Virus record (IMG/VR): IMGVR_UViG_2910013374_000001
Span: 1 to 64,000 of that record
Source of the DNA: a virus
Taxonomy: Duplodnaviria; Caudoviricetes
DNA length: 64,000 nt
Direction: 5' to 3' (one strand)
Part shown: one piece after another, positions 3,290 through 46,200 of the stretch
Layout: every line of letters begins with the position of its first letter
How positions within the stretch are numbered: the stretch's first letter is position 1
Position numbers and translations under genes: made by a program
Notes under the pieces: model-generated
The model's input: only the letters and a program-made list of their open reading frames with translations
What the model was told of the DNA's origin: nothing
Database searches by the model: none

Positions 3290-3469
3290 ATGCCTGGCCG
3301 AGCGGGAGATGTGACAACGAACAGGCACCGGCCAAGCGTTCGCGAACGGGTCTTGAAGCTTGTTGACCAGGGTTTTTCAGCTGAAGAGATCGGCAGGCGG
3401 ATGAAAGGCTTGATCGATCGAACAACAATTCAGCTTTGGGTCAAAGCACATCGAGGAGGTGACGAGTAG
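3290..3469 (+). CDS. small HTH protein (Cro-like position)
   Basis: RERVLKLVDQGFSAEEIGRRM..IDRTTIQLW HTH; sits between the putative repressor and rep. Confidence 0.6.
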   Translation: MPGRAGDVTTNRHRPSVRERVLKLVDQGFSAEEIGRRMKGLIDRTTIQLWVKAHRGGDE

Positions 3470-3516
3470 GTCGTCATCAGGACTCATAGCTTGTCCTGTT
3501 CCAACTCCAACACGGC

Positions 3517-4413: not shown

Positions 4414-4416
4414 TCC

Positions 4417-9937: not shown

Positions 9938-10339
9938 ATGGCTTCTATCTCCATCGCTGGCAAAGTCACTCGCGCTCCTGAGATCAAGTTCTTCGACTCA
10001 GGTTCACAGCTGTGCACCTTCAGCGTTATCGACAAGGAGTACGTCCGCCCCGCTAAGGGGCAGGACGAAGCTGCTGGCCAGTTCTATGACGTTCAGGTCT
10101 GGGGCAAGTACGCCGAGATCATCAGTGATCGAGTCGTCAAAGGGTCACGCGTTGCTGTTCACGGCAAGGCCGTCTGGGAGGAGTACACGAACAAGTCGGG
10201 AGAGAAACGCAAGGTTCTCCGCGTCAACGATCCCAACGTGACCTTCCTCGACAACAAGGAAGAGGCCGAAGCCCTCAAGGCTGCAGCTGGTGGCGGTGGC
10301 TCGTTCGGAGCACCGTCTACCGAAGAGATTCCTTTCTGA
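9938..10339 (+). CDS. ssb: single-stranded DNA-binding protein
   Basis: OB-fold SSB pattern (VQVWGKYAE, KGSRVAVHG) and acidic EEIPF tail. Confidence 0.92.
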   Translation: MASISIAGKVTRAPEIKFFDSGSQLCTFSVIDKEYVRPAKGQDEAAGQFYDVQVWGKYAEIISDRVVKGSRVAVHGKAVWEEYTNKSGEKRKVLRVNDPNVTFLDNKEEAEALKAAAGGGGSFGAPSTEEIPF

Positions 10340-16380: not shown

Positions 16381-17924
16381 AGAAGGGACTCGGAACGAAG
16401 TTCCTGCGCAAGGGCAGCAGGGATCAACCGCTTGTCGCCGATGCTCGCGAGAAGAAACTCAAGACCACGGGAGCAAGCGTCACCAACCTCACCTTCAAGG
16501 AGTACATCCAGGTGGTGATGCCTTCGTTTCAGTTTTATCAGTGGAACGAGATCCTGATTGACCGCCTCCAGGAGGTGGCCGACGGGAAGATGAACCGGCT
16601 GCTGGTCCAGTGCCCTCCTCGCCACGGCAAGTCAGAGCTGGCAAAGCTTTTCGCGGGCTACTACCTGCTGAGGTATCAGAACCGATTCGTCGGCGTGTCC
16701 TCTTATTCGATGGACTTGGCTTCCACCTTCTCGCGTGCATCGAGGGCCTACTACGGAGACGCTGGTGGCAAGTTCAACCCTGCCTCTCAGTCCGTTCAGT
16801 TCTGGGAGACAGAGAAGAAAGGCGGCTGCTGGGCTGCAGGTTCAGGCGGCTCCATCACCGGCAAGGGCGCTCACCTGGCGATCCTTGATGACCCGGTGAA
16901 AGGCAGAGAGGAAGCGGAATCACCGGCTTACATCCGCAAGCTGCATGACTGGTATAAATCCACCCTCAGAACCAGGATCAACCCTGAAGGTGGCGCCATC
17001 GTGATCATCCAGACCCGTTGGTCGATGACCGATGCGATCGGCCTGGTGATGGATCTCGAGGAGAGCGCACCCTCTGAGTTCAGGGAGGGCTGGCACATGG
17101 TCGACTTTCCCGCTGAGTATGAGGAATGGGACTACCGGCCACACATCCCTGAGTGCATCACCGTCGAGGAGGACTTCCGGACGACCAAGGGCGAAGCACT
17201 CTGCCCTGAGCGCTACAACGAGCAGGCCCTGGGCCAGATCAAGGCATCGATCGGGAGCCGGGAGTACGGCTCGCTGTATCAGCAGAACCCGCAAGCAACC
17301 GACGCTGCAATCTTCAAGCCGAGCTGGTGGCAGTTCCGCGAGATGGATCCAGACGTGGCGAAGTGGCAGCGGATCATCCTTTCGGTTGACTGCGCCTTCA
17401 CCGCCACAGCCAACAGCGACTTCGTGTCAATCGCCACCCTTGGTCAGCGCGAAGACGGCAGCTACGACGTGATCGATGTGATCAACGAGCGGCTGGATGT
17501 AGTCGACACCATGGCCGCCATCCGCGGAGCCGTGAACCGATGGAGGCCGTCTGCAGTTCTGATCGAAGCGGCAGCCAATGGCCACGCGGTGATCCAGATG
17601 ATGAAGAAGAAGATCCCGAACATCATCCCGATCAAGCCCGACAAGTCAAAGATCGCCAGAGCTTCAGGCGCTGCTCCAATGATCGAGGCGGGAATGGTGT
17701 TCATGCCAATCACAGCTCACTGGCTGCGCTTTGTGCTCGATCAGTTCGCTGTTTTTCCCGTGGGCCGTAACGATGACTGCGTGGACAGCATCACCCAGGG
17801 CCTGAACTGGATGCGGGACCGGGAGCCAATGCGTCAGATCACCGCCACCTGGGGCCGGTCAAACCACGCCCGCACCGTGCTTCCTCCGGACCTTCAAACA
17901 AGGCAAGGGATCGGCTGGGCTTAA
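16377..17924 (+). CDS. terL: terminase large subunit
   Basis: PPRHGKS Walker A, ILDDP Walker B, IQTRW, YQQNP, SVD, IE.AANG, SKIARA, NDDCVDS. Confidence 0.95.
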   Translation: MKKGLGTKFLRKGSRDQPLVADAREKKLKTTGASVTNLTFKEYIQVVMPSFQFYQWNEILIDRLQEVADGKMNRLLVQCPPRHGKSELAKLFAGYYLLRYQNRFVGVSSYSMDLASTFSRASRAYYGDAGGKFNPASQSVQFWETEKKGGCWAAGSGGSITGKGAHLAILDDPVKGREEAESPAYIRKLHDWYKSTLRTRINPEGGAIVIIQTRWSMTDAIGLVMDLEESAPSEFREGWHMVDFPAEYEEWDYRPHIPECITVEEDFRTTKGEALCPERYNEQALGQIKASIGSREYGSLYQQNPQATDAAIFKPSWWQFREMDPDVAKWQRIILSVDCAFTATANSDFVSIATLGQREDGSYDVIDVINERLDVVDTMAAIRGAVNRWRPSAVLIEAAANGHAVIQMMKKKIPNIIPIKPDKSKIARASGAAPMIEAGMVFMPITAHWLRFVLDQFAVFPVGRNDDCVDSITQGLNWMRDREPMRQITATWGRSNHARTVLPPDLQTRQGIGWA

Positions 17925-17986
17925 CCTTCTAAGTTATCAGTGTTCGTATCACGACTGGTAGCTTGTCACAACTCTTAGTGGCATCT

Positions 17987-18781
17987 ATGGGCGTGCGACC
18001 CCTTGGCTTCAAGCTCTCCAAGGCTCAGGCCCTTAAGGCACAGGAGAACATGAACCTGGCTCGCCGTGAGGCCTGGCGCTTCCAGCGTCGGACCGACATG
18101 ACCTACGACGACCTGGAATCGGTTGCCTTCATCGGCCTGATGAAGGCCTGCTTCAAGTTCGACGTTGGCAGGGGCTGGAAGTTCTCCACCTATGCGGTGC
18201 CTGTGATCCGCGGGGAATTGCTGCACTACGTGCGCGATCACTCCTATTTGCTGAGGCTCTCTCACCGGATGCGTGAGAACTGGGTCAAGGGCAGGCGCTT
18301 CCTTGATCGAGGTCACACCGATCAGCAGGTCGCCGATGAGCTGAAGATCAAGCTCGCTGAGTGGCTCGACACCCGTCAGGCCTGCAGCGGTGCACCTCTT
18401 GAACTCAAGGAGAGCCTCCATGTTGCTGACAAGTCTTTGGAAGCCAAGGAGGACGACAGGCTCAGCCGCCTCGAGCTGGCCGTTCAGAAGTCCTGGTCAC
18501 GAATGGGAGAGGTCTTCGCCAAGAACCTCGCTGCTCACTACCGTTTCGACCACCTGCTGAAGCCACACGCCGCAGACACCTTCGTCTCCAACTCCCTGGC
18601 CATTTACGACGGCCGGGATATTTGCTGGATGGACTACGGCTGCACGCCTGAAGCATCCCGCCCTACCTACGGGATCCAATCCGCCAGCGCCCAGGTGGAT
18701 GACGCCGGGATCTTCGTGATCGAATCGCAGGATCTGGGCAACGGCAGAGAGCAGCGTTCTCTCTTTGAGGACTACCTGTAA
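17987..18781 (+). CDS. second sigma factor (SigF/SigB-like group 3, divergent C-terminus)
   Basis: ENMNLAR..AW, DDLESVAFIGLMKA..KFD..RG.KFSTYAVPVIRGELLHYVRD. Confidence 0.88.
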   Translation: MGVRPLGFKLSKAQALKAQENMNLARREAWRFQRRTDMTYDDLESVAFIGLMKACFKFDVGRGWKFSTYAVPVIRGELLHYVRDHSYLLRLSHRMRENWVKGRRFLDRGHTDQQVADELKIKLAEWLDTRQACSGAPLELKESLHVADKSLEAKEDDRLSRLELAVQKSWSRMGEVFAKNLAAHYRFDHLLKPHAADTFVSNSLAIYDGRDICWMDYGCTPEASRPTYGIQSASAQVDDAGIFVIESQDLGNGREQRSLFEDYL

Positions 18782-18962
18782 GAGTTCGAACAGACAAGGG
18801 TAGCTTGTTCTGTCTCCAATCGCGGCCCTTATGGAGCCACTTTTCACCATCACGTCTTGGTCTCAAGGTCTCGCCCTCTATGGCGGGGCCTTTGCAGTGG
18901 GCGCCCTCTTCGCGGGAATTGCCATCGGCCTCGACACCTTGTCCAACCCTCGCCGCTGATTT

Positions 18963-20399
18963 ATGGCTGCCTCTTCTAACCACCTCAAGCGATTGCACTC
19001 CCTGTTGCAGTCGGGCTTGTACGCAACAAAAGGGCTCGCTTTCGATGCTCTTGCCCTCGAATTCCCCGAGGTCATGGATGGCTATGGCACCCCGATGTCT
19101 GCCGAACAGAACACCCTTGCTAAGTACCGCAAGGCCTATCCCGAGGAATTCACCCCACGCCCTGGCGCTGGTGGTGAGCGCGACGATCCCGACTATCTAG
19201 ACCAGCTCTTCCTCGATTCGATTGCTGAGGAGGTCGAGCACCCGCCCAGTCCTGTCGCTGAATGGACTCTTGAGGAGAAGCTCGATGCAGCTGACCTTGA
19301 GATCCAGGTTCAGAACGTCAGGTTGGCCAAGCAGCTCCAAGGACAGCGCGACAAGAACCGCATCGAGGCCAAGTCCTTCCGTGAGCACGCCCGCGTCGAA
19401 AACGCGATCGAGGCCTATGCCCGCGAGCTAACTGCAGCCGCCAAGGTGATGCAGGAGTACATGCCGGACTACACGGTCCGCACTGGCCCCCATGACTCTG
19501 ACTCTGCCGTTGGCCTTGTTCACCTCAGCGACCTCCATTTCAACGAGCTGATCGACCAGGTCGACAATCACTACGACTTCGAAATCGCTGCCAAGCGCCT
19601 CCAGAAGCTCGCCTCTGTGGTCAAGTTGCAGGCCAAGGTCTTTGGCATCGAGAAGATCGTGATCTGCTTCGGCGGTGATCTGCTGAATTCAGATCGTCGC
19701 CTCGACGAACTCCTCTCCATGTCCACCAATCGGGCACGGGCAACCATCCTTGCGGTGCACATCCTGCGCCAGTTCGTGATGGATCTCCGCGAGGAGTTCT
19801 TTGTCGACTGCTTCGGGATCACCGGTAACGAAGGCAGGGCCAAGCAGGAACTCGGTTGGGGCGACCTCGCTGTCACCGACAACTACGACGCGATGATCTA
19901 CGACATCCTCGGGTTTGTGATGGCCGGCGATAGAGGTCTTCGCTTCCACTCCCTGAAGGGCAACGAGCAGGTGTTCCAAGTCCACCAGGAGACCATCCTT
20001 CTGATCCATGGTCACCAGGTGAACGCCGACGATCAAAAGAAGGTCCAGGCGATCATCGGCCAGAAGTCAGCCTCCATTGGCCAGCGGATCACCCACATCC
20101 TGTGCGGACACATCCACGCTTCGAGGATTGGTGACTACATCAGCCGCAACGCTTCACTCGCTGGGGCTAACGCTTACAGCGGCCAAGCACTGCAGCTGGC
20201 TTCCAAGGCAGCTCAGAACTTTCACGTGGTCGACGCCGCTCACGGCGGGAGCATGTTCGGGCTGAAGGTTGATCTCCAGAACGTCGTGGGCATCGAGGGT
20301 TATCACATCATCGAAGAGCTCGAGGCCTACAACGCCAAGAGCCATGACAAGGCCCACCGCTCGACTCATCAGATCCAGCCGATTGTTGTTGTGATCTGA
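18963..20399 (+). CDS. calcineurin-like metallophosphoesterase with N-terminal extension
   Basis: SDLH, GGD, GNE, HGH and GHIH metal-binding motifs. Confidence 0.8.
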   Translation: MAASSNHLKRLHSLLQSGLYATKGLAFDALALEFPEVMDGYGTPMSAEQNTLAKYRKAYPEEFTPRPGAGGERDDPDYLDQLFLDSIAEEVEHPPSPVAEWTLEEKLDAADLEIQVQNVRLAKQLQGQRDKNRIEAKSFREHARVENAIEAYARELTAAAKVMQEYMPDYTVRTGPHDSDSAVGLVHLSDLHFNELIDQVDNHYDFEIAAKRLQKLASVVKLQAKVFGIEKIVICFGGDLLNSDRRLDELLSMSTNRARATILAVHILRQFVMDLREEFFVDCFGITGNEGRAKQELGWGDLAVTDNYDAMIYDILGFVMAGDRGLRFHSLKGNEQVFQVHQETILLIHGHQVNADDQKKVQAIIGQKSASIGQRITHILCGHIHASRIGDYISRNASLAGANAYSGQALQLASKAAQNFHVVDAAHGGSMFGLKVDLQNVVGIEGYHIIEELEAYNAKSHDKAHRSTHQIQPIVVVI

Positions 20400-20511
20400 T
20401 CCTGTTCGACTTGGAACAAGCAAGACACCAGGAGGCCTTCGGGCCTCTTTTTTGTGTCTGTTCGGAATCGAACAGGGACTCGTAGCTTGTCCTGTCGACG
20501 CATCTCACACC

Positions 20512-20601
20512 ATGAAACGCACCTCAATCGGGCACGGCAGGCGCAAGCGCGGCTCCTACGGCAGGGGCAAGAAAAAGTACCGCGGCCAAGGACGTCGCTG
20601 A
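20512..20601 (+). CDS. 29-aa highly basic peptide
   Basis: MKRTSIGHGRRKRGSYGRGKKKYRGQGRR directly after a TCGTAGCTTGT motif; below the ORF-track cutoff. Confidence 0.6.
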   Translation: MKRTSIGHGRRKRGSYGRGKKKYRGQGRR

Positions 20602-20628
20602 TCTCTGAAAACCCCTCTCTTCACTTCC

Positions 20629-20820
20629 ATGACTGCTCCCGGACAACGCACCAAAAAGGACTGCAGTTGCCCTCCCTCTTGCGCCTACTGCGCACAGACC
20701 GGCACCTGTACTTGCCCTGATGATCACGCCCCAGTCACTGAGCTCACTTTCGAGAGGAAGTTCGAGCGCTTCTGCGAGGAAAACGAAGGCGCCATCGAGT
20801 GCCGCATTTATGAGGACTGA
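20629..20820 (+). CDS. cp12: CP12-like protein with a Cys-rich N-terminus
   Basis: C-terminal FERFCEENEGAIECRIYED matches the CP12 C-x8-C-RIY(E/D)D tail. Confidence 0.75.
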   Translation: MTAPGQRTKKDCSCPPSCAYCAQTGTCTCPDDHAPVTELTFERKFERFCEENEGAIECRIYED

Positions 20821-20823
20821 CCC

Positions 20824-21090
20824 ATGAGCACTGAATTCACTCAAGACCCTTATGGGTATGAGGGCGTCGATGTCTACACATTTGACGTCAACTTCGACAA
20901 GAAGCTCGGCTTCGACGTCTCGGAATCCTCTTCTGCTTCGCAGACGCGACTCGACGGTGAATGGTTCGTCCTAGCCACGCCCGACGAGATCTTCGGCCCG
21001 TATGCCACGAAGGCAGAGGCTGAAGCCCTGCTCACAAAAGACCGCTTCAACTCTGACGAGTCGATGGTCTTTCAGCTCTCCTACCCCTGA
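20824..21090 (+). CDS. hypothetical protein
   Basis: 88-aa ORF in the cp12-thioredoxin run. Confidence 0.55.
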   Translation: MSTEFTQDPYGYEGVDVYTFDVNFDKKLGFDVSESSSASQTRLDGEWFVLATPDEIFGPYATKAEAEALLTKDRFNSDESMVFQLSYP

Positions 21091-21095
21091 CGCCC

Positions 21096-21389
21096 ATGTT
21101 CAAGCTCTACGCCATCGTCAACTACCAGACGTGCGGCTGGTGCAAGAAGTTCCGCCCGGTTTTGCAAAGCAACACCAGGGCCATGAACCCACGCAGCCAG
21201 GCCATGGTCGAGGAGGTTGATCTCTCGACACCAGCAGGTAAAGCCAAAGCATCCGAGCTGGGCTTCTCCGGAGGCATCCCTTGCTTGATCGCCACCAAGG
21301 GCGAAACACAGGTCTACAACAAGCCTGGCTATCAGGACGGCAAGGCATTCGCGCAGACCTTGTTCACCCTCTTCTCCACTTACGTCTAA
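21096..21389 (+). CDS. thioredoxin/glutaredoxin-like protein
   Basis: CGWC active site and GIP cis-Pro motif; adjacent to the RNR. Confidence 0.8.
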   Translation: MFKLYAIVNYQTCGWCKKFRPVLQSNTRAMNPRSQAMVEEVDLSTPAGKAKASELGFSGGIPCLIATKGETQVYNKPGYQDGKAFAQTLFTLFSTYV

Positions 21390-21463
21390 CCAGTACTGGT
21401 TCGAACACGTACACCGCCTCGGCCTAGCCGGGGCTTTCTTTTCCCAATTCCTTATCCCACCCG

Positions 21464-24067
21464 ATGCAGATCGTTCTTATTTCAGCTCCAGACCGTTGCG
21501 AGCCATGCCGGGACATGGATGCGCGTATTCAGGAAGTTCTCGAACTCAAGCCCCTCACATCCGCTGGAATTCGCATCATCCACGCTGATCGTCAGGAAGC
21601 TGAGGCCGCTAAGTACAACGCCAAGGTCATCCCAACAATCCTTCTCGTAAACGAGGGAGAGGAGCTTTTCCGCGCCGAGGGCCGGATCACCTCTGTTTTG
21701 TTTGAGACCTTGGTCGATGCCGTCCTTTTGGGCACCTATGACCCCGAGGAATTCCGCGAGCACGCACCCTCGGGAAATGTGGTCTTCTATCGCACCTACA
21801 GCCGCCGCACCGAAAGCGATCAGCGCGAGACTTTCAAGGAAGCCATCCATCGCGTCGCCAAGGACATCAAGGAGCTTGGCCAGTTCACAGAAGATGAGGA
21901 AGCCCTTGTCCTGAAGCAGGCTTTGGGGCAGCACGCTCTCCCTTCAGGCCGTTGGCTTTGGGTTGGTGGCACCCAATGGATCAAGCAACAGGAGAATTTC
22001 TCCGGCGCCTACAACTGCACGAGCACCAACGTCGACAGCCTTGAAGCTTTCGGCCTGATGATGGAGCTCGCGATGATGGGCTCAGGCACAGGCGCCATCC
22101 TCGAGAAGGACATGGTGGCCAAGCTTCCCAAGATCCTGAACCGCCTCAAGATCACGAAGGTCACAGAGCTGGGCACAGATGGTGGTGACGCCGAAACCCG
22201 GATGATCGGGAAGTTCAACGAAGCAAGCGCACGAATCATCGTTGGCGACTCCCGCAAGGGATGGGTCTCTGCTTATCAGCGACTGATCGAACTGGCCTAC
22301 GACCCGAATCTCAGAGCCAGGCTGAACAAGGACGGCAACGACTGCCTCAAGGTGATCATCGATCTCTCTCAGGTTCGCCCCGCTGGCCGCAAGCTCAAAG
22401 GCTTTGGCGGAACATCCAACCCCGTCAAGTTGGGCGACATGTTCAAGAAGGTGGCCTCGCTGCTCTCCCAGGCCCAGGGCCGCAAGCTCTCAGCCGTTGA
22501 GTGTTGCCTGCTGATCGATGAAGCGGCTGCCTGCATCGTGGCCGGCAATATCCGCAGGTCTGCAGGGATGCGTCAGTTCTCCTGGGATGACCTGGAGGCC
22601 AAGGACGCCAAAGACAACCTGTACACGCAGGACGCCAAGGGCAACTGGAAGGTGGACCCGATCAAGGAAAACCTGCGCATGGCGAATCACACCCGCTGCG
22701 CTCACACCAAACCAAGCCTCGAGGACGTCAAGGCTGCGGTGACCAAGCAGTTCTTCTCAGGAGAAGGCGCCATCCAGTACGTGCCCGAGGCCATCGCCAG
22801 GTCTTCCGCTGATCTCTTCGAGACACGCGACGACATGGAGGCATTCATGGAGATGTACGAGCAGGGCTATGGCAAGGACTTTCTCTGCTCCCTGATCGAT
22901 GTCGAACGCCCCGACATGCACAAGGAAGAGAAGGAAGAAGAGTTGACCGATCGCTTGCAGCGCTATGGACTCAACCCTTGCGGTGAGATCCTTGGCCACG
23001 ACTTCCACTGCAACCTGGCCGAGGTGCACCTCAACACCATCGACCCCCGCAACATCGACGCCCAGATCGAGGCCTTCCAAGCCGCAGGCCTACAGGTCGC
23101 AGCTCTTCTCCATCACGAGTTCGCCGTCGACCGTTATGCCTACAGCCGGATGATGGACCCCATCGTTGGCGTCAGTTTCACCGGCCTGTTCGATTTCTTC
23201 GTGCACGCCTTTGGTGAGCCTTGGCTCGCCTGGATGATGGCTGGCCGCCCCAATACTCAGGAGGGCTATGAGTTCATCGAGAAAGAGAAGGGCTATCTCG
23301 GCATCTGGCGCCGTGCTGTTCACACCACGGTCAAGGAGTACTGCGAGCGTCATGACCTGAAGGTGCCTAACCGCACGACAACAGTTCAGCCCGCAGGCAC
23401 AAAGAGCCTCCTTACAGGAGCCTCCTCTGGCTGGCACCCTCCCAAAGCGCAGCGTTTCATCCGCCGGATCACTGTTGGGGCAAACGATCCCGTCGCCTTG
23501 GCTGCAATGGAGTACGGCTTCTCGGTGATTCCAGCTCAGAGCGCACGCGATGAGGAGGGCAACCTGCTCGACGACATCAACGATCCACGCTCGACCGAGT
23601 GGCTGATTGAGATCCCGACTGAGGTTTCATGGGCCAACATCCCAGGCGTTGATCAGCACGATCTGTCTCAGCTGTCAGCCGCGGCCCAGTTCGGTCTGTA
23701 CATGTCAGTTCAGACCCACTACACCGAGCACAACACCTCAGCCACCATCGAGTTCCGTGAGCACGAGATCGACCAGCTGGCCGAACTCATCCATGGCCAC
23801 ATGGGCAAGGGCTACATCAGCGCCGCTTTGCTTGCGCGGTTTGACGCCAATGCCACCTTCCCCCGTCTTCCCTTTGAACCGATCAGCAAAGAGGTGTACG
23901 ACGAGATGGTTGAGCGCGTCTCGATCCGTGGTGAGGGCTGCGAGGACTTCCACCAGGCCCTGGCCAAGCACGACAGCGCTGACTTCGAGCTGACAACCTC
24001 AGCTGCTTGCACGTCAGCCGCCTGCATCGCATCAGCGGACAGGGCAGAAGCAGAAGGCAAGGTTTGA
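21464..24067 (+). CDS. nrdJ: class II (adenosylcobalamin) ribonucleotide reductase with an N-terminal thioredoxin domain
   Basis: VFYRTYSRR, PSGRWLW, YNC, VAGNIRRSA, NPCGEI, CNLAE, TVQPAGTKS and C-terminal ACTSAAC; N-terminal CEPC...IPT thioredoxin fold. Confidence 0.93.
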   Translation: MQIVLISAPDRCEPCRDMDARIQEVLELKPLTSAGIRIIHADRQEAEAAKYNAKVIPTILLVNEGEELFRAEGRITSVLFETLVDAVLLGTYDPEEFREHAPSGNVVFYRTYSRRTESDQRETFKEAIHRVAKDIKELGQFTEDEEALVLKQALGQHALPSGRWLWVGGTQWIKQQENFSGAYNCTSTNVDSLEAFGLMMELAMMGSGTGAILEKDMVAKLPKILNRLKITKVTELGTDGGDAETRMIGKFNEASARIIVGDSRKGWVSAYQRLIELAYDPNLRARLNKDGNDCLKVIIDLSQVRPAGRKLKGFGGTSNPVKLGDMFKKVASLLSQAQGRKLSAVECCLLIDEAAACIVAGNIRRSAGMRQFSWDDLEAKDAKDNLYTQDAKGNWKVDPIKENLRMANHTRCAHTKPSLEDVKAAVTKQFFSGEGAIQYVPEAIARSSADLFETRDDMEAFMEMYEQGYGKDFLCSLIDVERPDMHKEEKEEELTDRLQRYGLNPCGEILGHDFHCNLAEVHLNTIDPRNIDAQIEAFQAAGLQVAALLHHEFAVDRYAYSRMMDPIVGVSFTGLFDFFVHAFGEPWLAWMMAGRPNTQEGYEFIEKEKGYLGIWRRAVHTTVKEYCERHDLKVPNRTTTVQPAGTKSLLTGASSGWHPPKAQRFIRRITVGANDPVALAAMEYGFSVIPAQSARDEEGNLLDDINDPRSTEWLIEIPTEVSWANIPGVDQHDLSQLSAAAQFGLYMSVQTHYTEHNTSATIEFREHEIDQLAELIHGHMGKGYISAALLARFDANATFPRLPFEPISKEVYDEMVERVSIRGEGCEDFHQALAKHDSADFELTTSAACTSAACIASADRAEAEGKV

Positions 24068-24143
24068 AGCTGTTCTAGTTCGAACAGGGACTCGTAGTTT
24101 GTAGGGCTCGCGCAGGCGGGCCCTTTTTCTTTCCTATTCATTC

Positions 24144-24449
24144 ATGAAAGCTCTTCTCCTTGTATCTGCTGGTTTGCTGCTTGGAGCACCTGCCATGGCT
24201 CTTGAAGTCGGTGTCCGTCACAGCCACGGATCCTCCTATTCCACCTTCGAAGGCCGCAGCGTCACCGACTCCCACGTCAATGGATCTGTGACTGAGCACT
24301 CCGTCTCTGGTGGTGGTGCTCGTTTGTTTGGTGGTTCAGGTGGTTTCCGCACCGTGACTGAGAACTACGGCTCAACAACGAACACTCGCGAACGTTTCTC
24401 TGGTGGTGCCAATAGCGGCTTCACCGAGTCCGCCACCTTCTCTCGCTGA
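24144..24449 (+). CDS. secreted hypothetical protein
   Basis: signal-peptide-like N-terminus (APAMA). Confidence 0.6.
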   Translation: MKALLLVSAGLLLGAPAMALEVGVRHSHGSSYSTFEGRSVTDSHVNGSVTEHSVSGGGARLFGGSGGFRTVTENYGSTTNTRERFSGGANSGFTESATFSR

Positions 24450-24490
24450 GAAGCGCTGATCTGATTTCTGACCTCTTTCCTTTCTGAACC

Positions 24491-24985
24491 ATGCACCGCT
24501 TTGCTCTTCCTTTGTTGCTCGGCCTTTCCGCTATTGGTGCGCCAGCTTTTGCTGGTGGCTCGGCACAGCAGAACTCCGTCAACAACCAGAACAACAGCGG
24601 CATGGTCAACCAGAGCCCAATAGGCGGGGTCAACCACAACACTCAGATCAACAACAACTCGATCAGTGAGTACAGCTTCGGGCCTGGGATCAACTGCCCA
24701 ACTCCTGGGCTTGCCTTCTCCTCCTCTTATGCAGGCGGGAGTGGTGGTTTCGATGGCTATTCAGCTTCTGTGTCCTATGTGATGCCGCTTGGTGGCTCCA
24801 TTGGCAGAGCTTGCAAGGAACTCGCCGTTGAGATCGCCAGGCAAAGGCAGCTCGACACCCAGGTCACGATGATCCACCAATGCGCAGGCTTTGCGGCTCA
24901 GGGCATTCAGATCGACGTTGCATCCTTTCCAGAGTTCAGCGTTTGCAGCGCTGTGCAGGTCAACGGGAACTCTGCTGTCAACTAG
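24491..24985 (+). CDS. secreted hypothetical protein (Asn/Gly-rich, Cys-containing)
   Basis: signal-peptide-like N-terminus (APAFA). Confidence 0.65.
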   Translation: MHRFALPLLLGLSAIGAPAFAGGSAQQNSVNNQNNSGMVNQSPIGGVNHNTQINNNSISEYSFGPGINCPTPGLAFSSSYAGGSGGFDGYSASVSYVMPLGGSIGRACKELAVEIARQRQLDTQVTMIHQCAGFAAQGIQIDVASFPEFSVCSAVQVNGNSAVN

Positions 24986-34902: not shown

Positions 34903-37900
34903 TTGGTGCAAGTGGCAGGTACTGGAGCTGATCTTGAGAATTCCACCCTGGCCTGGGTCGACAAGCTCGACGGGCTAGGTGATGGCACCACGAAAGCTCA
35001 GAACGCAATCCTGGCCAACAGCGCCGAGCAGATGCTCGCTGAGCTGCGCAAGTCCTACACAAAACTCGCTGACGAGAAAGCCAAGGACCCCAACAGCAGG
35101 TCCCAGATCTACACCTCGCAGCAACTGGCCAACAGGATCGAGAGCACGATCGAACTGTTGCCGGCCAAGCAGCGCAAGGCACTTGAGGGCCTTTATGACG
35201 CCGAACTGAAGAAGGCCGACCGACTGGGTCGTGAGTCAGGCGTTGATCTCAACAACATCCTCAAAAACAGAGACAAGACCCTCAATCAGAACGCCAAGCC
35301 AAACGTCGATGCCGTCAACGCAGCCAACAGGCGGCTGAACCAGTTCTGGCAGAAGGAAAACTCGCAATTCACCGATCGGGTGAAGGCGATGACTCGCAAC
35401 GCCGCAGCCCAGGGCATGAGCTGGCGGCAGCTGAGCAAGAACATCCGCGAACTGCTGATCCTTGAGGAGAAGCAGGGCACACAGAGCGACAGGTCCAAGG
35501 CCGTCAACAAGCGATTCGGCATCCCAGGACGGGCCGAGATGATTGCCAGAACAGAGCTCTCCAACGTCTACATCGGCGGAAAGCTCGATTCATACAGAGA
35601 GATGGGATACGACCACGTCAGGTGGTCCGCTGCAGCCGAGCGCACCTGCGGCTTTTGCATGAGCCGTGACGGGCTGGTCTATCCAGCCGAGGAGATCGAG
35701 AGCGCAATCCCTGCGCACCCTCGCTGCCGCTGCGACCTCATCCCGGTCGATGTGCCCAAGGACATGAAGGGCAAGAAGATCACGCCCAAGCAGGCCGCTG
35801 AGGAGCTCGACGATGGCTACTGGTCCAATTCCAGGAAGCAGAAGCTCGACCAGTGGAAGAAGGAGCAGAACCTCAACAAGAGAGGCGAGCCCAAGTCGAT
35901 CCTCAAGAGCAACAGCGAACTTGACCAGGCTCTGCGCAACTACGCCCAGACGCCCACCAACACGCAGAACTATTTGCGCCCAGGCCAGCCGGCTTCCCCT
36001 CCCCTGTATGCGCCAAGCGGCAGCATCATTCCCGATGTCGAGGTGGCGGCCACAGCGGCCAAGCAAGCCGCAGCGGATGAGACCAATCGCGTCGAGAGAA
36101 AGCGGCTAGAGGCTGAGGCCCAGAAGCTCAGGGACACAGAGGTTCAAGAGCGCCCAAGCGAGGAATTCACCCACCAGCGATTCAGCGACGCGGACGGAGA
36201 GCCAGGGCCCAATACCCGTTGGACCAAGGAGCGGCAGAAGCTGCACGACAAGATCCTCAACGAATTCCTGAAGAACGGGGTGGTCAGCAAGAACCCCACC
36301 TTCACCATGTCTGGTGGTGGCCCTGCCTCAGGCAAGGGCTTCATGTTGAAGAAGACCGGCCTGGATCAACCCGGCAAGGTCGTGATCGACGCGGACGAGA
36401 TCAAGAAACTCATCCCTGAGTACGCCAAGGCACAGAAGACAGGCGGCAAGGCACAGCAGGCAGCAGCGGGTCTGGTGCACGAGGAATCGAGCTACCTGGC
36501 CAAGCGGATCATGAGCGAGGCCTCCAAGCGCAAGTTCGACGTCGTTCTCGATGGAACAGGGGACAGCGGCATCAAGTCCCTGTCTAAGAAGGTTCAGAAG
36601 ATGCGCGACCAGGGCTACAGGGTCGAGGCCAAGTACGTCAGCGCCGACACAAACACTGCAGCGCAACGCAACTGGGATCGTTTCCTCAAGACCGGACGCC
36701 TTCCACCCGAGTGGATGCTCCGCAACGTTCACGCCGATGTCTCCAAAACTCTCCCTGAAGCCATCAAGAAGGGGATCTTCGACAAGGTCGAGCTCTACGA
36801 CACCAACAAGTCGGGCGAACTGCGCAAGGTCATCACACAGGTGGGCGGCAAGAAGCCAACCATCAACGATCCGAAGCTCTGGGATGACTTCCTGAACAAG
36901 GCCAAGGCCCCTCAGGTCACTAAGGAACAAGGCGACGCAATGATCGCCAAGCGCAAGGCCGACATGCAAGCGGCCAAGGCACCAAAGAAGGCTCCTCAGG
37001 CAATCATCGATGCGGGCCTCGAGCAGGGCTGGAAGCTGATGGCCGAGCAGCCGGCACAGCAGGCCAAGCTCCTCGCCAAGGTCGAGGGCATTGCAGCCAA
37101 GGCCAAGCGCACCGAGGCGCTCAAGCCGATCAAGGCCAAGAAGTCAGCTGAGACCCAGGAACGCAAGAAGGACTACTACGACGAGGTCGTGTGGAGGGCT
37201 GAGCAGTTCGGGATCAGCATCAAAGCGGCCACAGGTGCTTACGCCAAGGCGATCAAAGAATCGGGCATGAAGCCCGGCGCTGACTACAACGAGGCCATCG
37301 ATAACGCGTTCATGAGCGCGATGAGGAAGGCCGGTGAGGCGGCCAGGAAGGACGCACTGAGGGGAATCAAGGCCAAGAACTCAGCCAAGGTCGCTAGCGC
37401 GAAGGAGGACTACCTCGACGAGATCGACTATCGGGTCAAGACCAACAAGATCACCCGCGCAGAAGCGATCGACGTCTACGCCAAGGCGGTCAAGAAGACC
37501 AAGTTCAAGAACGGACGCTCGGGCGAAGACCTCGAGGACGATTTCTTCTCAGCGATCAGCAAGGAAGCCAAAGAGCAATTCGCCAAGACCGGCATCGACA
37601 CCAAGAAGATGGTCGCGGAAGCCAGGGCGGAAGCACTCGCGAAGAAGCAGGCCAGGAATCTGGGCACGGTCGACACTGCGAAGACTGCAGGGCCAGCAGC
37701 AACCAAGGGCACCTTCAAGGGCAAGACCTCAGCGGATCGCGTCGCTGAGCAGAAGCTGCTGATGAAGGACAGCTTCGATGGTGGGCTCACACGTCAGGGC
37801 ATCAAGGACACCTTCAACACGTTGGCATCGGCCAGCGGTGCATCGGGCGCGAACTTCCGGAAGCTGATGGATTTCGCGGAGAGATACAACATCTCCACGG

Positions 37901-40155
37901 TCATGGGCTCCGGCGGACAAACAGCAGCTCAGATGCCGTATGCAACGCGGGGCAAGTGGGCCAAGCAGCTCGAGAGCTCGATCAAGTCCTCTCAGGCACG
38001 AGGCGACAGCTCGAATCGGTCATGGCAAGACACCGCCCTGCTCGAAATCAAGAACAGGCGCAAGGGCAGCAACGCCGGCACTCCACTACTCGACCGGGAC
38101 CTGGGCATCGACCCCACCTTCGGAGTCAACGGCACAACAGCAAAGGGCTGGGGATTCACCAAGGTCAAGACCCTGGCAACCGACAGACCAATCGATCGCG
38201 GCACCTTCGAAAAGATGCGCTCAAACATCGAGAAGGGCATCAGGGACGCAGCGGACTTCAACGCACCGGCAAACGTCAAGTCAGGGGTGGGCAACCGGAT
38301 GATCAAGGGCCCCAATGGCCAGGTCCTCCAGCGCGGTGATCACGACTGGCTGCTCACCCATGTCCACGAAATGGGCCACCAGATCCACTTCGCGGCAGGT
38401 TCTCCCAAGTACCGCGGCAAGGATCGTTACTCCCCGAGCCAATACGGCAGGACCAACAAGGAGGAGTGGTTCGCGGAAACTCTCGTCCAGTACACGATCG
38501 CCCCCAACGCACTGAAGACGGCCTCACCCGAGGCGTTCAAGTTCGTGGACAAGATCGTGAAGCGGGCGATGTCGGACACCCCAGGCCGGGTGAACCGCTG
38601 GGCAAACAACGGCACCGTCAAGCCGGACGACCTGTTCAACCCAGCCGAGGTGCTGGCCAAGCAGAAGGGCGCCACGGTGCCGCAACTGAAGGCGATGGCC
38701 AAGGAAGCCGGACTGAAGGGCTACTCGAAACTGACCAAGCCGCAGCTCGTCGAGGCCCTCTCAAAGACAAGATCTGCGGGTACGCCTGCCCCTGCAAAGA
38801 CACAGTCTTCCCCTACAGGCACACCTGCAAAGCCAAAGGCTGCAGCTAAGACCCCAGAGGTCAAGCCGGTCGACTACGGCAAGAAAACCGTCAAGCAACT
38901 GCAGGCTGAAGCCAAGGCCAATGGACTGAAGGGCTACTCAAAGCTGAAGAAGCCCGACCTCGTCAAGGTCCTGGAGGAGGCAACAGCTGCGCCTAAGGCT
39001 GCAGGCATCAAGACCAGCAAGGCCAAGGCCAAGAAGAACCTGACGCAGGCGGAGAAGGACTTCAAGCTCGTCAATGAGCAGCTCGGCCTGAGCAAGGAGC
39101 AGTGGAGCAGCAAGAGCGACGCTGCCAAGACGCTCACGCTGAAGACGGCCGCCAAGAAAGCGGCTGCGCCCAAGCTCACCGCTGCTGAGGTGAAAGCGAA
39201 GGAAGCCAAGGCGAAGTACGAGGCAGCCCTCGAGGCCAAGGCTCAGAAGAAGCTCGCGGCTGACATCGCCAAGCTCGACGCTGAGGTGGCCGCCAAGGCC
39301 GCCAAGGCTGCAGCGAAGAGCGCCAATAAGGCTGTCGAGGATCAGATCGCGGCGATCAATAAGGAGATCAAGGCGATCTCACAGAAGGCGCTCACGGGCC
39401 AGAAGGTGACCGCAGCAGAGCAGAAACGCGCAGCCGAACTGCAAAAGCAGAAGCGCGAGCTCATGCAGGAGGAGCCGGGCGACGTTGTCACGAAGATCGA
39501 TCGGACGACGACCGACGTCGAGCACATCTACCGGGCGAAAGACTTCAAGGCCTACGGCTACAACAGCCGGGCGGAGATGACCAGCGCCCTGCAGAAGGTG
39601 GCGGAGTACACCGACGAGGGCTACAAGCGATTCATGAATGCCCAATGGGCGCAGAAGCTGCAGGCAGGCGGCAAGTTGACCGCTTACGAGACAGCCAGGG
39701 CGAAGGAGGCGATCAAGAACAAGAACGCCCTCAAGCTGCAGAGGGACATGGAAGCAGCCGAAGAGCTCGAGAAGTTCATCGCCAAGGCGCCCAAGTACGA
39801 CGGATTGGTCATGCGCGGCTTGCACATGGCCGACGACGCGTCTGCTCTGCAGTTCATCAAGAACCTGGGCAAGGGCACGAAGACCAATTCGGTCGAGAGT
39901 TGGTCAGACGATTACGCCACCGCCGAGCAATTCTCAAATGGCCGCAAAGGCATGGTCGGGATTGTGCTCAGCGTGCAGAACAAGAGCGGCGTCCCGATTG
40001 CCGGCGCTTCCAACTTCTCCACGGAGAGCGAGGTTCTGGTGCCAAGTGGCCAGAGTTACCGGGTCAAGAACGTGACCAAGCGCATCGATGAGGATCTAGA
40101 GATCGGCGGCAATAAGCAGGTGATCTATGACGTCGACCTCGAGCTGATCGATTGA
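34903..40155 (+). CDS. MuF/SPP1 gp7-like minor head protein fused to Zeta-like kinase, zincin peptidase, two Rho-N/HeH motifs and an ADP-ribosyltransferase (start may be GTG 34912)
   Basis: IARTE...TCGFC...PAHPRCRC; GGPASGKG, IDADEIK, HEES, LDGT; HEMGH...SQYG.TN.EEWFAE; YT..GY, MRG, ESWS, ESEVL. Confidence 0.88.
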   Translation: MVQVAGTGADLENSTLAWVDKLDGLGDGTTKAQNAILANSAEQMLAELRKSYTKLADEKAKDPNSRSQIYTSQQLANRIESTIELLPAKQRKALEGLYDAELKKADRLGRESGVDLNNILKNRDKTLNQNAKPNVDAVNAANRRLNQFWQKENSQFTDRVKAMTRNAAAQGMSWRQLSKNIRELLILEEKQGTQSDRSKAVNKRFGIPGRAEMIARTELSNVYIGGKLDSYREMGYDHVRWSAAAERTCGFCMSRDGLVYPAEEIESAIPAHPRCRCDLIPVDVPKDMKGKKITPKQAAEELDDGYWSNSRKQKLDQWKKEQNLNKRGEPKSILKSNSELDQALRNYAQTPTNTQNYLRPGQPASPPLYAPSGSIIPDVEVAATAAKQAAADETNRVERKRLEAEAQKLRDTEVQERPSEEFTHQRFSDADGEPGPNTRWTKERQKLHDKILNEFLKNGVVSKNPTFTMSGGGPASGKGFMLKKTGLDQPGKVVIDADEIKKLIPEYAKAQKTGGKAQQAAAGLVHEESSYLAKRIMSEASKRKFDVVLDGTGDSGIKSLSKKVQKMRDQGYRVEAKYVSADTNTAAQRNWDRFLKTGRLPPEWMLRNVHADVSKTLPEAIKKGIFDKVELYDTNKSGELRKVITQVGGKKPTINDPKLWDDFLNKAKAPQVTKEQGDAMIAKRKADMQAAKAPKKAPQAIIDAGLEQGWKLMAEQPAQQAKLLAKVEGIAAKAKRTEALKPIKAKKSAETQERKKDYYDEVVWRAEQFGISIKAATGAYAKAIKESGMKPGADYNEAIDNAFMSAMRKAGEAARKDALRGIKAKNSAKVASAKEDYLDEIDYRVKTNKITRAEAIDVYAKAVKKTKFKNGRSGEDLEDDFFSAISKEAKEQFAKTGIDTKKMVAEARAEALAKKQARNLGTVDTAKTAGPAATKGTFKGKTSADRVAEQKLLMKDSFDGGLTRQGIKDTFNTLASASGASGANFRKLMDFAERYNISTVMGSGGQTAAQMPYATRGKWAKQLESSIKSSQARGDSSNRSWQDTALLEIKNRRKGSNAGTPLLDRDLGIDPTFGVNGTTAKGWGFTKVKTLATDRPIDRGTFEKMRSNIEKGIRDAADFNAPANVKSGVGNRMIKGPNGQVLQRGDHDWLLTHVHEMGHQIHFAAGSPKYRGKDRYSPSQYGRTNKEEWFAETLVQYTIAPNALKTASPEAFKFVDKIVKRAMSDTPGRVNRWANNGTVKPDDLFNPAEVLAKQKGATVPQLKAMAKEAGLKGYSKLTKPQLVEALSKTRSAGTPAPAKTQSSPTGTPAKPKAAAKTPEVKPVDYGKKTVKQLQAEAKANGLKGYSKLKKPDLVKVLEEATAAPKAAGIKTSKAKAKKNLTQAEKDFKLVNEQLGLSKEQWSSKSDAAKTLTLKTAAKKAAAPKLTAAEVKAKEAKAKYEAALEAKAQKKLAADIAKLDAEVAAKAAKAAAKSANKAVEDQIAAINKEIKAISQKALTGQKVTAAEQKRAAELQKQKRELMQEEPGDVVTKIDRTTTDVEHIYRAKDFKAYGYNSRAEMTSALQKVAEYTDEGYKRFMNAQWAQKLQAGGKLTAYETARAKEAIKNKNALKLQRDMEAAEELEKFIAKAPKYDGLVMRGLHMADDASALQFIKNLGKGTKTNSVESWSDDYATAEQFSNGRKGMVGIVLSVQNKSGVPIAGASNFSTESEVLVPSGQSYRVKNVTKRIDEDLEIGGNKQVIYDVDLELID

Positions 40156-41848: not shown

Positions 41849-43039
41849 ATGGAAGATCTCGTCATCAGAATCTGCTTCAAGTCGGGGTCTGTCTCTGAAG
41901 AGCGCGGGACTGAACTGCAGATCACCGCTCTCTTCGATGACGACGTCAACGGTCTGATCGATTACGTCATGGCCCTGGAGCCCAAAGCTGGTGAGATCGC
42001 TCTCTGGCAGCACGAAGGCGACCCACGCTGGGCCGAGATCGAGTACTGATCACACTTGGAACAGGGCTCGTAGCTTGTTGCACATCGCACAAGCGGCCAT
42101 GCTTGAACTCCTCAAGCTTCTGTTCAGCAAGAAAGGCTTCTCCTGCAGGGTCCTTCCACCCGGCTCCGTCTGGGCATCCAAGTCAAAGGGCAGACAGCTC
42201 GTCGTGATCATCGACCTGGATGAACTCGATGCTTGAGTCCGGAACCTCCTTCTCCTCCCCTGGGGGGAGTTTTTCGTATGTGATCCAGGGGCCTGTTTGC
42301 CGCCTGTACGACCGCGAGGAATTGCCCTGGCCCTCCTGCTCGCTGCAGTGGAAGGGCAAGCAGCCCAGCTGGAACCGGGTCGGCCGCCGCTTCGTTGGTG
42401 ACATCGCTGTCAAGCGCAACCCTTCCTATTCCGTGATTGGTATCGACCGCTCCGGGCACACCTGGGAGCAGGTGATCACGGATTTCACCTACATGAACTC
42501 CATGGCGCATCGCCGCTGGTGGTATGCCGCCTCGCCGCCTCCTGGGAAGAACTATCCGAACTATCCAGGAGACAACGGATGAGCAACCGTGCCCTTTCGG
42601 TGATGCGCTGCTGCGCGTCTGCTTTGGCTTTGATTGCCTATGGGCTGCTCACCCACGGCATGACGACCGCCGGGATCTTCGTGGCCTTGGCCGGCCAGTG
42701 CGCCTTTATCCCCTGGTCGATCCGTAACAAGGTCTGGGACATGGTCGCCCTCGACGCCTTCTACATCGCCATTGGTCTCACTCGCCTGGTGACGCTGTGA
42801 TCCGTCTTTACTTCTCCCACGCCACAAGACTGCGCAAGTTCTCCCTGTGGACCGCGATGATCGGTTTTGGCGGGTTCATCGTGGGCGCTGTTGAGTTCGC
42901 TCTCTGGGTGCGAATCCTCACCGAGCTAACCCGCTTGCCGAGCTTCAAAGAAGAGGGCATGACCGACCAGGTCCGCCTCTGTTATGTGGTGCTGATCGGT
43001 TGCGTGATTGGTCTGATTCGGCTGCGCTTCTACCCCTGA
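41849..43039 (+). other. small hypothetical genes (41849-42049, 42099-42236, 42229-42582, 42579-42800, 42797-43039); the last two are membrane proteins
   Basis: coupled ORFs after conserved boxes; hydrophobic segments. Confidence 0.55.
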
Positions 43040-43041
43040 GC

Positions 43042-43210
43042 TGACGAGCTACTCGTCACTGCACAGCTAGTCGTCAGTGAAGAGCTACTCGTCACTGGGT
43101 GACGACCTAGTCGTCATCTAGATGAAGAGCTACTCGTCATCAAGGTGAAGAGCTACTCGTCAACATATAAGAAGGTTTATAAGAAGCTCTTTAAGAAGAA
43201 GAAGAAGAAC
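43042..43210. repeat. second iteron array (six 17-bp palindromes) plus A/T-rich tract, matching the origin inside rep
   Basis: TGA(C/A)GA-N5-TCGTCA at 43042, 43060 (TGCACA variant), 43078, 43100, 43123, 43146, then ACATATAAGAAGGTTTATAAGAAG. Confidence 0.9.
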
Positions 43211-46200
43211 CTCACTTCGTTCGGCAACCTCCTCCGCGTCTCCCTTCAAAGCGTGGACAAGCCACTCACTGATCACCAAGTCAAGCTCCTCAAAATCATC
43301 GACCACGTCAGATGGGATGAGAACGATGAGCTGGACGCTTTCGGATACCACCAAGTGCGTCGGGCGATTGGCCAAGGCGACTTCGTCATCGAGTTCGAGC
43401 TGAAGCAGGCCGTGGACCATCAGGAGTCGTTCTCAGGCCAAGGCTTTCCAACTCCACCGCCGGGTGAGGCTCGCTCTCCATGGATCGACACCTGGAATGT
43501 GCCCCTGGATCAGTACCGGCGGATCAGCACTGCCATCGACCTGTCTGGCTTCGAACCGGGCTCGTAGCTTGTCCTGTTCCGTACAGCTTGAACATGTTTA
43601 CGGCAAGACCCCGTCCGGTTGATCGCCTCACGGTGACCGACACCGCCTTCGTCCTCAATCTCGGCTTCTTCGCTCTGGTTGGCTTCAACACGATCCACCA
43701 CACCGATGGGCACATCACCTGGGGCGCAACCTGGGCCATGCTTGATCTCGGCTTCGTGCGCACCGCTGGATTCATCGGGGGGACAGGCCAGTGATCACCC
43801 GCTTCTATCTCGCCCTTGCGGCGAGCATGGCCGGCATTGGCTTGTGCTTCTACCTCGCGCCAGCTCAGCAGTGGCCCGTCACCCGCAGCGGCCTCGATTG
43901 CTCGGAGATCGGCGAGGTTCTGTCCGAGGTTCCGCCTGAACTTCGTATGCCGCTCGCTGACATCGAGGCGATCATCGAGCGCTGCAGGAATTCTGAGATG
44001 TCTCAGGCAATGCTCACTCGAACAGCTTGACATCAAGTCTTCGCTGAGCGACTCTTAAGGAGTCGAGCCCGAACCGGCTTTTTTTAAGCCTCCACCTTGT
44101 TCTAGTTCTTACCATGACCGCTACTTCACGCGAACTGCGCATCATCGAACTCACGAAGGAAGCTCAGATGCACAGCGATATGGGCAACAAATTCGGCATG
44201 TACGCGTGCCTCCGCGAGATCACATCTCTGCGCCAGCCATGACCTACTCCGTCACCTTCATGACCAAGCAGGGAGCCAGTCGCACCGAACACGTCAAGGC
44301 CGACTCGCTCTTCCTCGCCGTCCAGACCTGTCAGCACACCGACCAGGTCGCAAAAGTCCTCCGCATCGTTGAAGTCCAATGATCGATCTCACCCAACACT
44401 CCGACGTCCACGTCCTGTTCCTCGAGACCACCGAGGCAGACCTCAAGGCCAAAGACAAGAGCCTCCCGAGTGACACCCATTTGGTGCGCTACATCAAAGA
44501 GGGCATCGAGCAGATCAGCGCCCTGCGGGCCTACAAGAGCGTCGACATCTTCGACGCCCTGCACGACAACGGCTGCGAAGTGCTCGAGATTCGCCGCGGG
44601 TTCGGGACCATCAGGCCGAATCTGTACGGCTTCGTGAAGACGGAGGGCTGATCTATGGCTCAGTCATCAGCCGAGAAGCGCGACCGCTTCGCCCGGATGT
44701 TCCCGCCACGTGCCCAGAAGCTTGTCGATCAGTTCCGCCTTCTGGAGAACTGCACGAGCAAGTCCAACTACGAGTGGACCGAGGACACGGTGAAGCGGGC
44801 CTGGATTGAGATCGCTAAGGCGTTGCAGACCACTGCCAAGGCCTACGACCTGGAACTGGACGTCAGCCTCAATGGCGACGAGGTCCAATTCATCGACACC
44901 AGCAAACCCCTGCCCGAGTAAGCCATGACCGAATTCACCACTGATCCCTACGGACCCGAGAACGTCGCCACCCTCCTCGCTGCCATGAAGCGTGTCCGGG
45001 AGCTCCGCAAGGCTGGGAGAGACCCAGAAGCCGGTGAGGTCGTCAAGCAGCACTGGCCGCACCTGTACTCCCACTTCTTCGAAGGGGAAGCACGCAGGGC
45101 TTGAGTTTGCCCTTACTCAGGAAATTCTCAGGGGCCTCGGCCCCTTTTTTGTTGACACCACGTCCCCCAGGATCCATGCTTAACGAGTCACCGAGAGAAC
45201 GACATGCAACGCCAACTCCGCACCCCTGAAGAAGTCGCCGCTTTCAAGGCCGCCAACCTCGCAGCAAACGCCCGCAACAAGCAGGTGGTCGTGATCAAGG
45301 CCGAGAGGCCAGCACCTCGCCCGACCCAGCGCCAGCAGTTCGCAGCTGACCTGCGCGAGACCGAGGACATGATCCGCGCCGCTAAGCGCCAAGGCCTTCT
45401 GCAGGCCATCCCCGCCCTGATCGGCCGCCACAACACACTGACCGCCTTGGTCAATAACGCCGCGCTGACCTGAGATGTCACGCGGAGGACGCGTAGCTGG
45501 GGGCGCTTTCCCCGGCCCCTCGATCGGGTGCTTGCCAGCACTCCTGCCATTCATCGGGATGGCACTGGTCCTTGCAGCGGCAAGGCCTCTGGCGCAACAG
45601 ACGCCCGCTCCTGCGCCTGCAGCTCCGCTGGTTCAGGTCAACCTCGGGCCTGTGATCGAGAACGTGAACATCTACGTGAAAGAGGGAACGCCTCAGTGGG
45701 TGATCGAGGAAGAGCTGAGGAATCTGGGCCGAGCAAAGGCTCACTCGCCCGCCTCCCCCATGGCTGCCCGCACCCGCGCTGGTCGCACCACTCACCTCAA
45801 GACGCCGGCGATGTATTTCAGCGACTGCGAGGACGATCCAGTGCTGATGCCGCTCAAGGAGTGGAGGGAACGCTAGGGCGACTGGTAGCTGTGTCTTGTT
45901 CGAGTTCGTACTATGACCGTTTTCTCTCCCGGCCCGTTCAAGGGTCACCAGCGCAAGCATTCACCCCTCGTCGACGCCGCAACGCTCAAGGCCCGCCTCG
46001 ACGAACAGGTTCGCCAATTCCGCCAGGGAGCCGAGCAGTGAGCCGCGCCTCTGATCGATTGGCGCTACTGGATCTCGCCATCGAGGCCGCAGACACTGAC
46101 GAGCTGAAACACCAGCTGATCGGTGAACGGGCTGCGCTGGCTGAGGCCTATAGGACGCCCACTCAATGACACATGCGCGACCCGGTTTTCGAGCCGGGTT

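Follow-up and report, generated by a model that had tools for sequence, protein, structure and literature searches.

Why would a phage carry, far from its putative replication initiator gene (rep) and between two other genes, a second set of the palindromes that lie within rep itself? The question arises from a viral record in IMG/VR of 106,484 bp, classed there as a provirus, the first 64 kb of which are here called the window. An initial annotation of this DNA had described the distal locus as a free-standing second copy of a rep-internal replication origin, and had offered two explanations for it: a dual-origin phage, or a copy-control locus of the kind known as P1 incA. We designate the set inside rep array 1 and the distal set array 2.

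Genome Context and Relatives

The gene order of the window is collinear with that of the Prochlorococcus siphovirus P-SS2. It starts with a gene for a RecT-family protein on the minus strand, followed by rep, a DnaB-like helicase and primase; then come dCTP deaminase, a sigma factor, a single-strand DNA-binding protein (SSB), a PD-(D/E)XK exonuclease and ThyX, and after these terminase, portal, a very large protein that corresponds to one listed in P-SS2 as ‘head morphogenesis’, and a run of small genes (Table 1). A homologue of the P-SS2 integrase is encoded near the right end of the record (G000:103726-105171, 32% identity, E 5e-69), indicating that the phage is temperate and integrating; we take the record to be a prophage, resembling P-SS2, of a marine cyanobacterium. 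A tRNA-Met gene (G000:C1:103641-103716) adjoins this integrase homologue. The attP of P-SS2 is reported to have 36 bp in common with a host tRNA-Met (PMC2784084), and the attachment site of the record may thus be marked there. A plasmid similarity search gave no match.

Two full-length relatives were compared with the record, an IMG/VR contig of 99.5 kb (G001) and P-SS2 (107.5 kb), whose Rep proteins are 45 and 25% identical to the one studied here (gp107 in P-SS2). G001 was the single full relative recovered by alignment-based scans, which otherwise gave a 22-kb fragment, and it was also the sole match to a DNA pattern of the A/T-rich tract described below. Pattern scans of IMG/VR with single proteins (Rep, the gp037-like protein and the helicase) yielded no close relatives; scans of genome contigs yielded none either, and a metagenome scan gave one 1.4-kb fragment.

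Table 1. Positions of the two arrays, their A/T-rich tracts and the genes discussed in the text, numbered from the first base of the window.
Feature	Position	Strand	Remarks
RecT-family annealing protein	762-1706	-	
Single perfect palindrome	3460-3476	.	41 bp upstream of the rep ATG; candidate rep operator
rep, putative replication initiator	3517-4413	+	winged-helix N-domain, disordered linker, helical C-domain
Array 1	3818-3915	+	five sites, the first weak, within the stretch of rep coding for the linker
A/T tract of array 1	3916-3962	+	encodes DKKAFKK; followed by a short palindrome and a GAGAAGAAGG run
DnaB-like replicative helicase	4417-6015	+	
DNA primase	5895-7535	+	
Single-strand DNA-binding protein	9938-10339	+	
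PD-(D/E)XK recombination exonuclease	12999-13949	+	
Upstream 80-aa gene	42797-43039	+	putative membrane protein, by eye
Array 2	43042-43162	+	six 17-bp dyad-symmetric sites (6-N5-6), non-coding
A/T-rich, purine-skewed tract of array 2	43163-43210	+	candidate DNA-unwinding element
Conserved small gene, P-SS2 gp037 homologue	43253-43567	+	start revised to GTG 43253

Two Arrays of One Palindrome

The sites of array 2 start at 43042, 43060, 43078, 43100, 43123 and 43146, with the spacings 18, 18, 22, 23 and 23 bp that had been annotated. Five of the six match TGAMGA-N5-TCGTCA exactly; the second, at 43060, is degenerate, with two mismatches in its left arm. The five sites annotated within rep are likewise present, at 3818, 3836, 3854, 3876 and 3899 (spacings 18, 18, 22 and 23 bp), the first of them being weak (9/12 arm positions). 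When the whole window was scanned for the motif with at most one mismatch, 20 matches were found against 0.79 expected, a count equalled by none of 100 shuffles, and nearly all of these matches fall into two clusters. Array 1 and its A/T tract sit in the codons of the Rep linker (103-150, nt 3823-3966), and the start-to-start distance to array 2 is 39,224 bp, in agreement with the 39 kb initially given.

The likeness of the two loci extends beyond the palindromes. Both arrays are followed by the motif ACA-K-ATAAGAAGG-YTT-W-TAAGAA and an AAG-rich purine run, as had been described, and the two modules align over ~170 bp in identical orientation. Between paired sites the arms are identical at 47/60 positions and the N5 cores at 8/25 (Fisher p = 1e-4), which bears out the earlier statement that arms are conserved while cores differ. 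Array 2 has more sites than the rep-internal array, and its palindromes are nearer to perfect. Gene conversion between the copies could have contributed to their likeness.

Array 2 begins 2 bp past the stop codon of the upstream 80-aa gene, whose product appears, by eye, to have a homologue upstream of the array in the IMG/VR relative. Stops occur in every one of the six frames of 43040-43262; a coding reading of array 2 was dropped for this reason, and its description as free-standing stands. No DnaA boxes were found near either array, and an Rfam search gave no match. The first gene past the second array is always the gp037 homologue; Pfam and PHROG gave no lead for its protein, and Atlas returned sub-threshold matches only. 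Judged from the gene starts of its homologues in P-SS2 and in the IMG/VR relative, this gene most likely starts at the GTG listed in Table 1 and not at 43145; a start near 43253 is consistent with all three homologues. Here and in G001, a frame of lysine codons runs without a stop from the A/T tract into the gene that follows, giving a falsely long ORF (43145-43567); according to P-SS2 and the conserved N-terminus, the true start lies 3-4 codons ahead of an LTDHQ motif.

Single palindromes occur at two further places. Upstream of rep, 18 bp at 3458-3475 (the palindrome of Table 1 with two flanking bases) match the iteron at 3834-3851, and the site is a candidate operator at which Rep would regulate its own gene. 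The site patterns applied found no equivalent lone site ahead of rep in G001 or P-SS2. Beyond the window, a perfect TGACGA-N5-TCGTCA palindrome lies within a long tail-fibre ORF (G000:C1:84400-84416); since ~0.005 such palindromes are expected in 106 kb from base composition, it may be a third, solitary Rep site.

An A/T-Rich Tract at Both Copies

In the tract that follows array 2, three TAAGAAG words spaced 12 bp apart are followed by an (AAG) run. The least stable 46-bp stretch of the entire 106-kb record falls here, at 43165-43210 (dG -51.0, against a mean of -67.1 and a standard deviation of 3.5). The array 1 tract within rep reaches a stability z of +3.0, which places it in the top 0.2% of 26-bp windows, so that by rank of duplex stability both copies carry an A/T-rich tract, a candidate unwinding element. 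In P-SS2, the two corresponding tracts rank first and second among the distinct low-stability peaks of the genome, 93% of which was scanned. The A/T tract is common to all three genomes compared, whereas the iterons are not. The second least stable stretch of the record, 2288-2333, falls in the gap between the minus-strand genes 1776-2291 and 2369-3112, and also contains TAAGAA words.

The Putative Initiator

We assign the ORF that contains array 1 putatively as Rep, on the basis of weak profile matches, its predicted fold and its gene context. In an AlphaFold model (AF2; 16 homologues), residues 6-100 fold confidently into a winged-helix N-domain, which a disordered linker (103-150) joins to a helical C-domain. 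Foldseek ranked winged-helix domains of the MarR, GntR and ArsR types highest, with weak E-values and probabilities of 0.95-0.99. Rep and its family match several PHROG ‘replication initiation’ families, the best of which is the ‘O-like’ PHROG 678 (E 0.003 for Rep itself; 3/16 family members match, the best with E 2e-6), and a Pfam search of Rep gave no match. The gene lies directly upstream of those for the DnaB-like helicase and the primase. The protein collection holds rep only as a 198-aa product, P0002 (99% identical, 66% coverage), apparently because a gene caller placed its start past the iterons.

Variability across the family alignment is highest in the linker, which is made of short repeated peptides, as would be expected if it encodes iterons. 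Among distant members the N-domain has diverged more than the C-domain: the identities of the two domains to those of the G001 Rep are 45 and 61%, respectively, and in the most distant family member the corresponding values are 24 and 50%. The helicase is 59-67% identical across the three phages. P0008 and P0009, which are closely related, have different putative recognition helices as well as different repeat peptides in the linker. These sequence patterns fit a Rep N-domain that co-evolves with the iterons; on that view, the C-domain and the helicase, both conserved, would be the parts that use the conserved A/T tract.

Iterons Change Together at Both Loci

The two-array layout recurs in both full-length relatives. 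In G001, the linker-coding part of rep has GGGAGT-type sites at 2984, 3007 and 3030, 23 bp apart, and a second set of the same type starts at 36968, 36990, 37013 and 37036 (36968-37047), 34 kb downstream of rep. A terminator-like hairpin precedes this distal set, and TAAGAAG words, an AAG run and the gp037 homologue follow it. In P-SS2, the 107.5-kb genome has just two clusters of CTTCCATGGG sites with no more than one mismatch, one in the linker-coding part of gp107 (93863, 93885 and 93908) and one in the gap between cobO and gp037 (24850, 24872 and 24894); three isolated one-mismatch CTTCCATGGG sites lie elsewhere. The distal P-SS2 cluster is 38.5 kb downstream of the rep cluster across the circular junction, and a near-identical A/T tract follows each cluster. 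In the relatives, too, the second array is intergenic and upstream of the same conserved small gene. The array within the linker-coding part of rep is also present in a fourth, fragmentary relative, with a different site of the same 6-N5-6 geometry; this fragment does not extend to the distal locus.

The iterons of the three genomes are mutually unrelated, and each distal array is made of the iteron of its own phage. Local alignment of the iterons alone gave z-scores of 17.3, 19.1 and 23.5 for the three pairs within genomes, but at most 3.9 for the pairs between genomes (12/12). This difference indicates that the site sequence has changed fully between lineages, and that it did so in both copies together, while site geometry, phasing, the A/T tract and genomic position stayed constant. 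The covariation rests on three lineages, one for each of the three genomes compared. The initial annotation had argued for selection and against a recent duplication from the arms and cores of the window; this argument holds, and the syntenic array that covaries with the rep iterons in three genomes strengthens it. From these sequence comparisons we consider array 2 very probably bound by Rep and maintained by selection.

Comparison With SPP1 and Other Replicons

In Bacillus phage SPP1, the gene for the origin-binding protein, gene 38, contains one origin (oriL), and a second (oriR) occupies an intergenic gap at a distance of ~13 kb on the circle; each has repeats and an AT-rich unwinding element, and gp38 binds the two with nanomolar affinity (PMC6316719, PMC3485210). 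Theta replication starts at oriL, and it has been proposed that gp38 bound to oriR stalls the fork and triggers a switch to concatemer synthesis by way of a RecT-like protein, an exonuclease, SSB and a resolvase (PMC6316719, PMC3485210). A comparison within the SPP1 record aligned nt 290-465 of gene 38 to nt 4806-4970, a stretch past a terminator downstream of gene 7.

The cyanophage arrangement resembles that of SPP1 in several respects. In both, one origin is in the middle of the initiator gene, and a homologous copy of ~170-180 bp lies in the same orientation in a non-coding gap of the late region; initiator-binding repeats (putative here) are followed by an A/T-rich tract. A DnaB-type helicase gene is downstream of the initiator gene, directly here and past the loader gene 39 in SPP1, and RecT, exonuclease, SSB and a DnaB-like helicase are encoded by both phages. 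The SPP1 copy directly follows gene 7, for a minor head protein, and array 2 lies ~3 kb past the large protein whose P-SS2 equivalent is of the ‘head morphogenesis’ type, a putative counterpart of the (MuF-type) gene 7 product. The similar placement may be old and shared, or else a coincidence. The positions concerned are 34903-40155 and 43042 in the window, 3802-4970 in SPP1 (NC_004166) and 17648-24970 in P-SS2.

The two systems also differ. Alignment of Rep with SPP1 gp38 by hhalign detected no homology (probability 0.1%), and the sole link is PHROG 345, matched by gp38 (E 4e-7) and by one member of the Rep family (E 0.001). Since no homology of Rep to gp38 was detected, the likeness is one of architecture and not of protein family. 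The sites here are 6-N5-6 palindromes, in contrast to the direct-repeat boxes of SPP1, and no separate helicase loader gene was seen in the window. Unlike SPP1, the phage studied here is temperate and integrating, with a genome of ~105 kb and a cyanobacterial host, and the copies in the cyanophages are 34-39 kb apart and not ~13 kb.

Array 1 itself has the layout of the lambda origin: there, too, the middle of the initiator gene O, where the linker is encoded, contains dyad iterons spaced by about two helical turns, and an A/T-rich, strand-asymmetric tract and a short palindrome follow. The division of labor may be similar as well, with an N-domain that binds DNA and a C-domain that presumably recruits the helicase (putative for Rep), although homology to O appears only at a weak profile level. 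To our knowledge the lambda origin is single and has no distal copy, whereas here a second full copy spans 43042-43210. Replicons with separated arrays for one initiator are found in P4 (ori and crr) and R6K (alpha, beta and gamma), which share with this phage the presence of two or more arrays in one replicon and in which the arrays cooperate through initiator contacts. Their arrays are 1-5 kb apart (~4.5 kb for P4 ori-crr), and crr is, as far as we know, an enhancer that does not itself fire. P1, a plasmid prophage, resembles the phage studied here in having a second array of initiator sites (incA) apart from the origin and its incC array. We know of no unwinding element in incA; the present phage differs in that it integrates (integrase, provirus class) and in that array 2 has a candidate unwinding tract.

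Candidate Roles of the Distal Array

The question posed by the locus can now be answered in graded terms. We read the element as an oriR-type partner of the rep-internal origin, a non-coding copy of the complete origin module that would be recognized by the phage’s own Rep, and give this reading a probability of about 0.6. Array 2 is probably an origin or a barrier element resembling oriR and not purely a control site. Dual-origin use, the first of the two explanations initially offered, is the best reading available and has an exact precedent in SPP1 oriL/oriR (PMC6316719), which makes the layout less unusual than had been assumed; the part of that proposal concerned with firing goes beyond what the sequence can tell, and that array 2 actually fires is a tentative suggestion, somewhat on the doubtful side of even.

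In the mechanism that we envisage, dimers of the Rep winged-helix N-domain would bind the 6-N5-6 palindromes; that Rep binds both copies we infer from the covariation of iterons in three genomes. Because the sites are phased about two helical turns apart, the resulting nucleoprotein complex would form beside the most easily melted tract of the genome. Unwinding there could let a DnaB-like helicase be loaded at array 2, so that a second origin would fire. Alternatively, the tight Rep complex could arrest a fork arriving from the rep-internal origin, in the way proposed for SPP1 oriR, after which theta replication would give way to concatemer synthesis through the set of RecT, exonuclease and SSB. 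Firing and fork stalling are compatible roles.

A bolder form of this reading, which we consider rather unlikely, makes the intergenic copy a real firing origin, possibly the main or the late one. It draws on the freedom of this copy from coding constraint, on its more numerous and nearer-perfect sites and on its longer unwinding tract. On this reading, the conserved Rep C-domain and the helicase would recognize the conserved TAAGAAG words at 12-bp spacing as a helicase-loading element, and the iterons would be swappable parts read by the fast-evolving N-domain.

The second explanation initially offered was copy control, in which the distal array would limit initiation by titration or handcuffing in the style of P1 incA or R6K and would never fire. 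The larger number of near-perfect sites in array 2 would suit a titrating locus, and the cognate site type shared by both arrays makes Rep-mediated pairing physically plausible. A phage that integrates by a P-SS2-type integrase, however, has no obvious use for plasmid-style copy control, and titration needs no unwinding element, yet the tract is kept in three genomes and is even strengthened here, where it is the least stable spot of the record. We therefore regard such a locus as distinctly unlikely. Lower still in probability we place an enhancer resembling P4 crr, whereby Rep bound to array 2 would loop to the rep origin and initiation would occur only inside rep. Two arrays for the same initiator, whose relative orientation is fixed and whose separation is 34-39 kb in three genomes, would suit such an enhancer, but this separation far exceeds that in P4, and the conserved unwinding tract of array 2 would be left unexplained.

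Lower again is the probability that array 2 is a Rep-controlled promoter or operator for the small genes downstream, with the A/T tract serving as a -10 region. In each genome, the array is followed by the gp037 homologue, where a block of genes on the same strand begins; in G001 it follows a terminator-like hairpin, and in P-SS2 weak promoter-like matches overlap the tract. Against this, searches of the window and of G001 revealed no sigma-70-like promoter, the distance from tract to gene start varies from ~40 to ~215 bp, and a copy of the tract lies midway through rep, a place for which no promoter would be expected. Such a role would nevertheless be compatible with an origin. That the locus is a functionless relic of a duplicated or displaced rep fragment is hardly credible: the two modules are homologous and a lysine-codon frame runs open through the tract into the next gene in two genomes, but the array is syntenic in three genomes with unrelated iterons that always match the resident rep, its palindromes are nearer perfect than the coding copies, its arms are conserved while its cores have diverged, and a comparison of the downstream ORF with Rep found no Rep homology in the flanks.

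Implications for Cyanophage Replication

The replication of marine cyanosiphoviruses is essentially uncharacterized. The P-SS2 genome paper names no origin or iterons (PMC2784084), and literature searches for cyanophage iterons or a P-SS2 origin returned nothing relevant; a pair of the oriL/oriR type thus appears undescribed for cyanophages in the papers searched, while the design itself is known from SPP1. Two candidate origins and a putative initiator can now be assigned both to an integrated prophage and to P-SS2, for which phage and host are in culture. Because three lineages changed their iteron specificity in both copies together, the comparison supports, beyond SPP1 alone, the view that selection, and not accident, accounts for a distal copy of an initiator-internal origin. 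The role of SPP1 oriR has itself only been proposed (PMC6316719, PMC3485210), and the question of whether such an element is a second origin or a fork barrier for the change from theta to concatemer replication becomes testable in a second, unrelated system. If the intergenic copy does fire, cyanophages of the P-SS2 type would be natural two-origin replicons with modular origin specificity.
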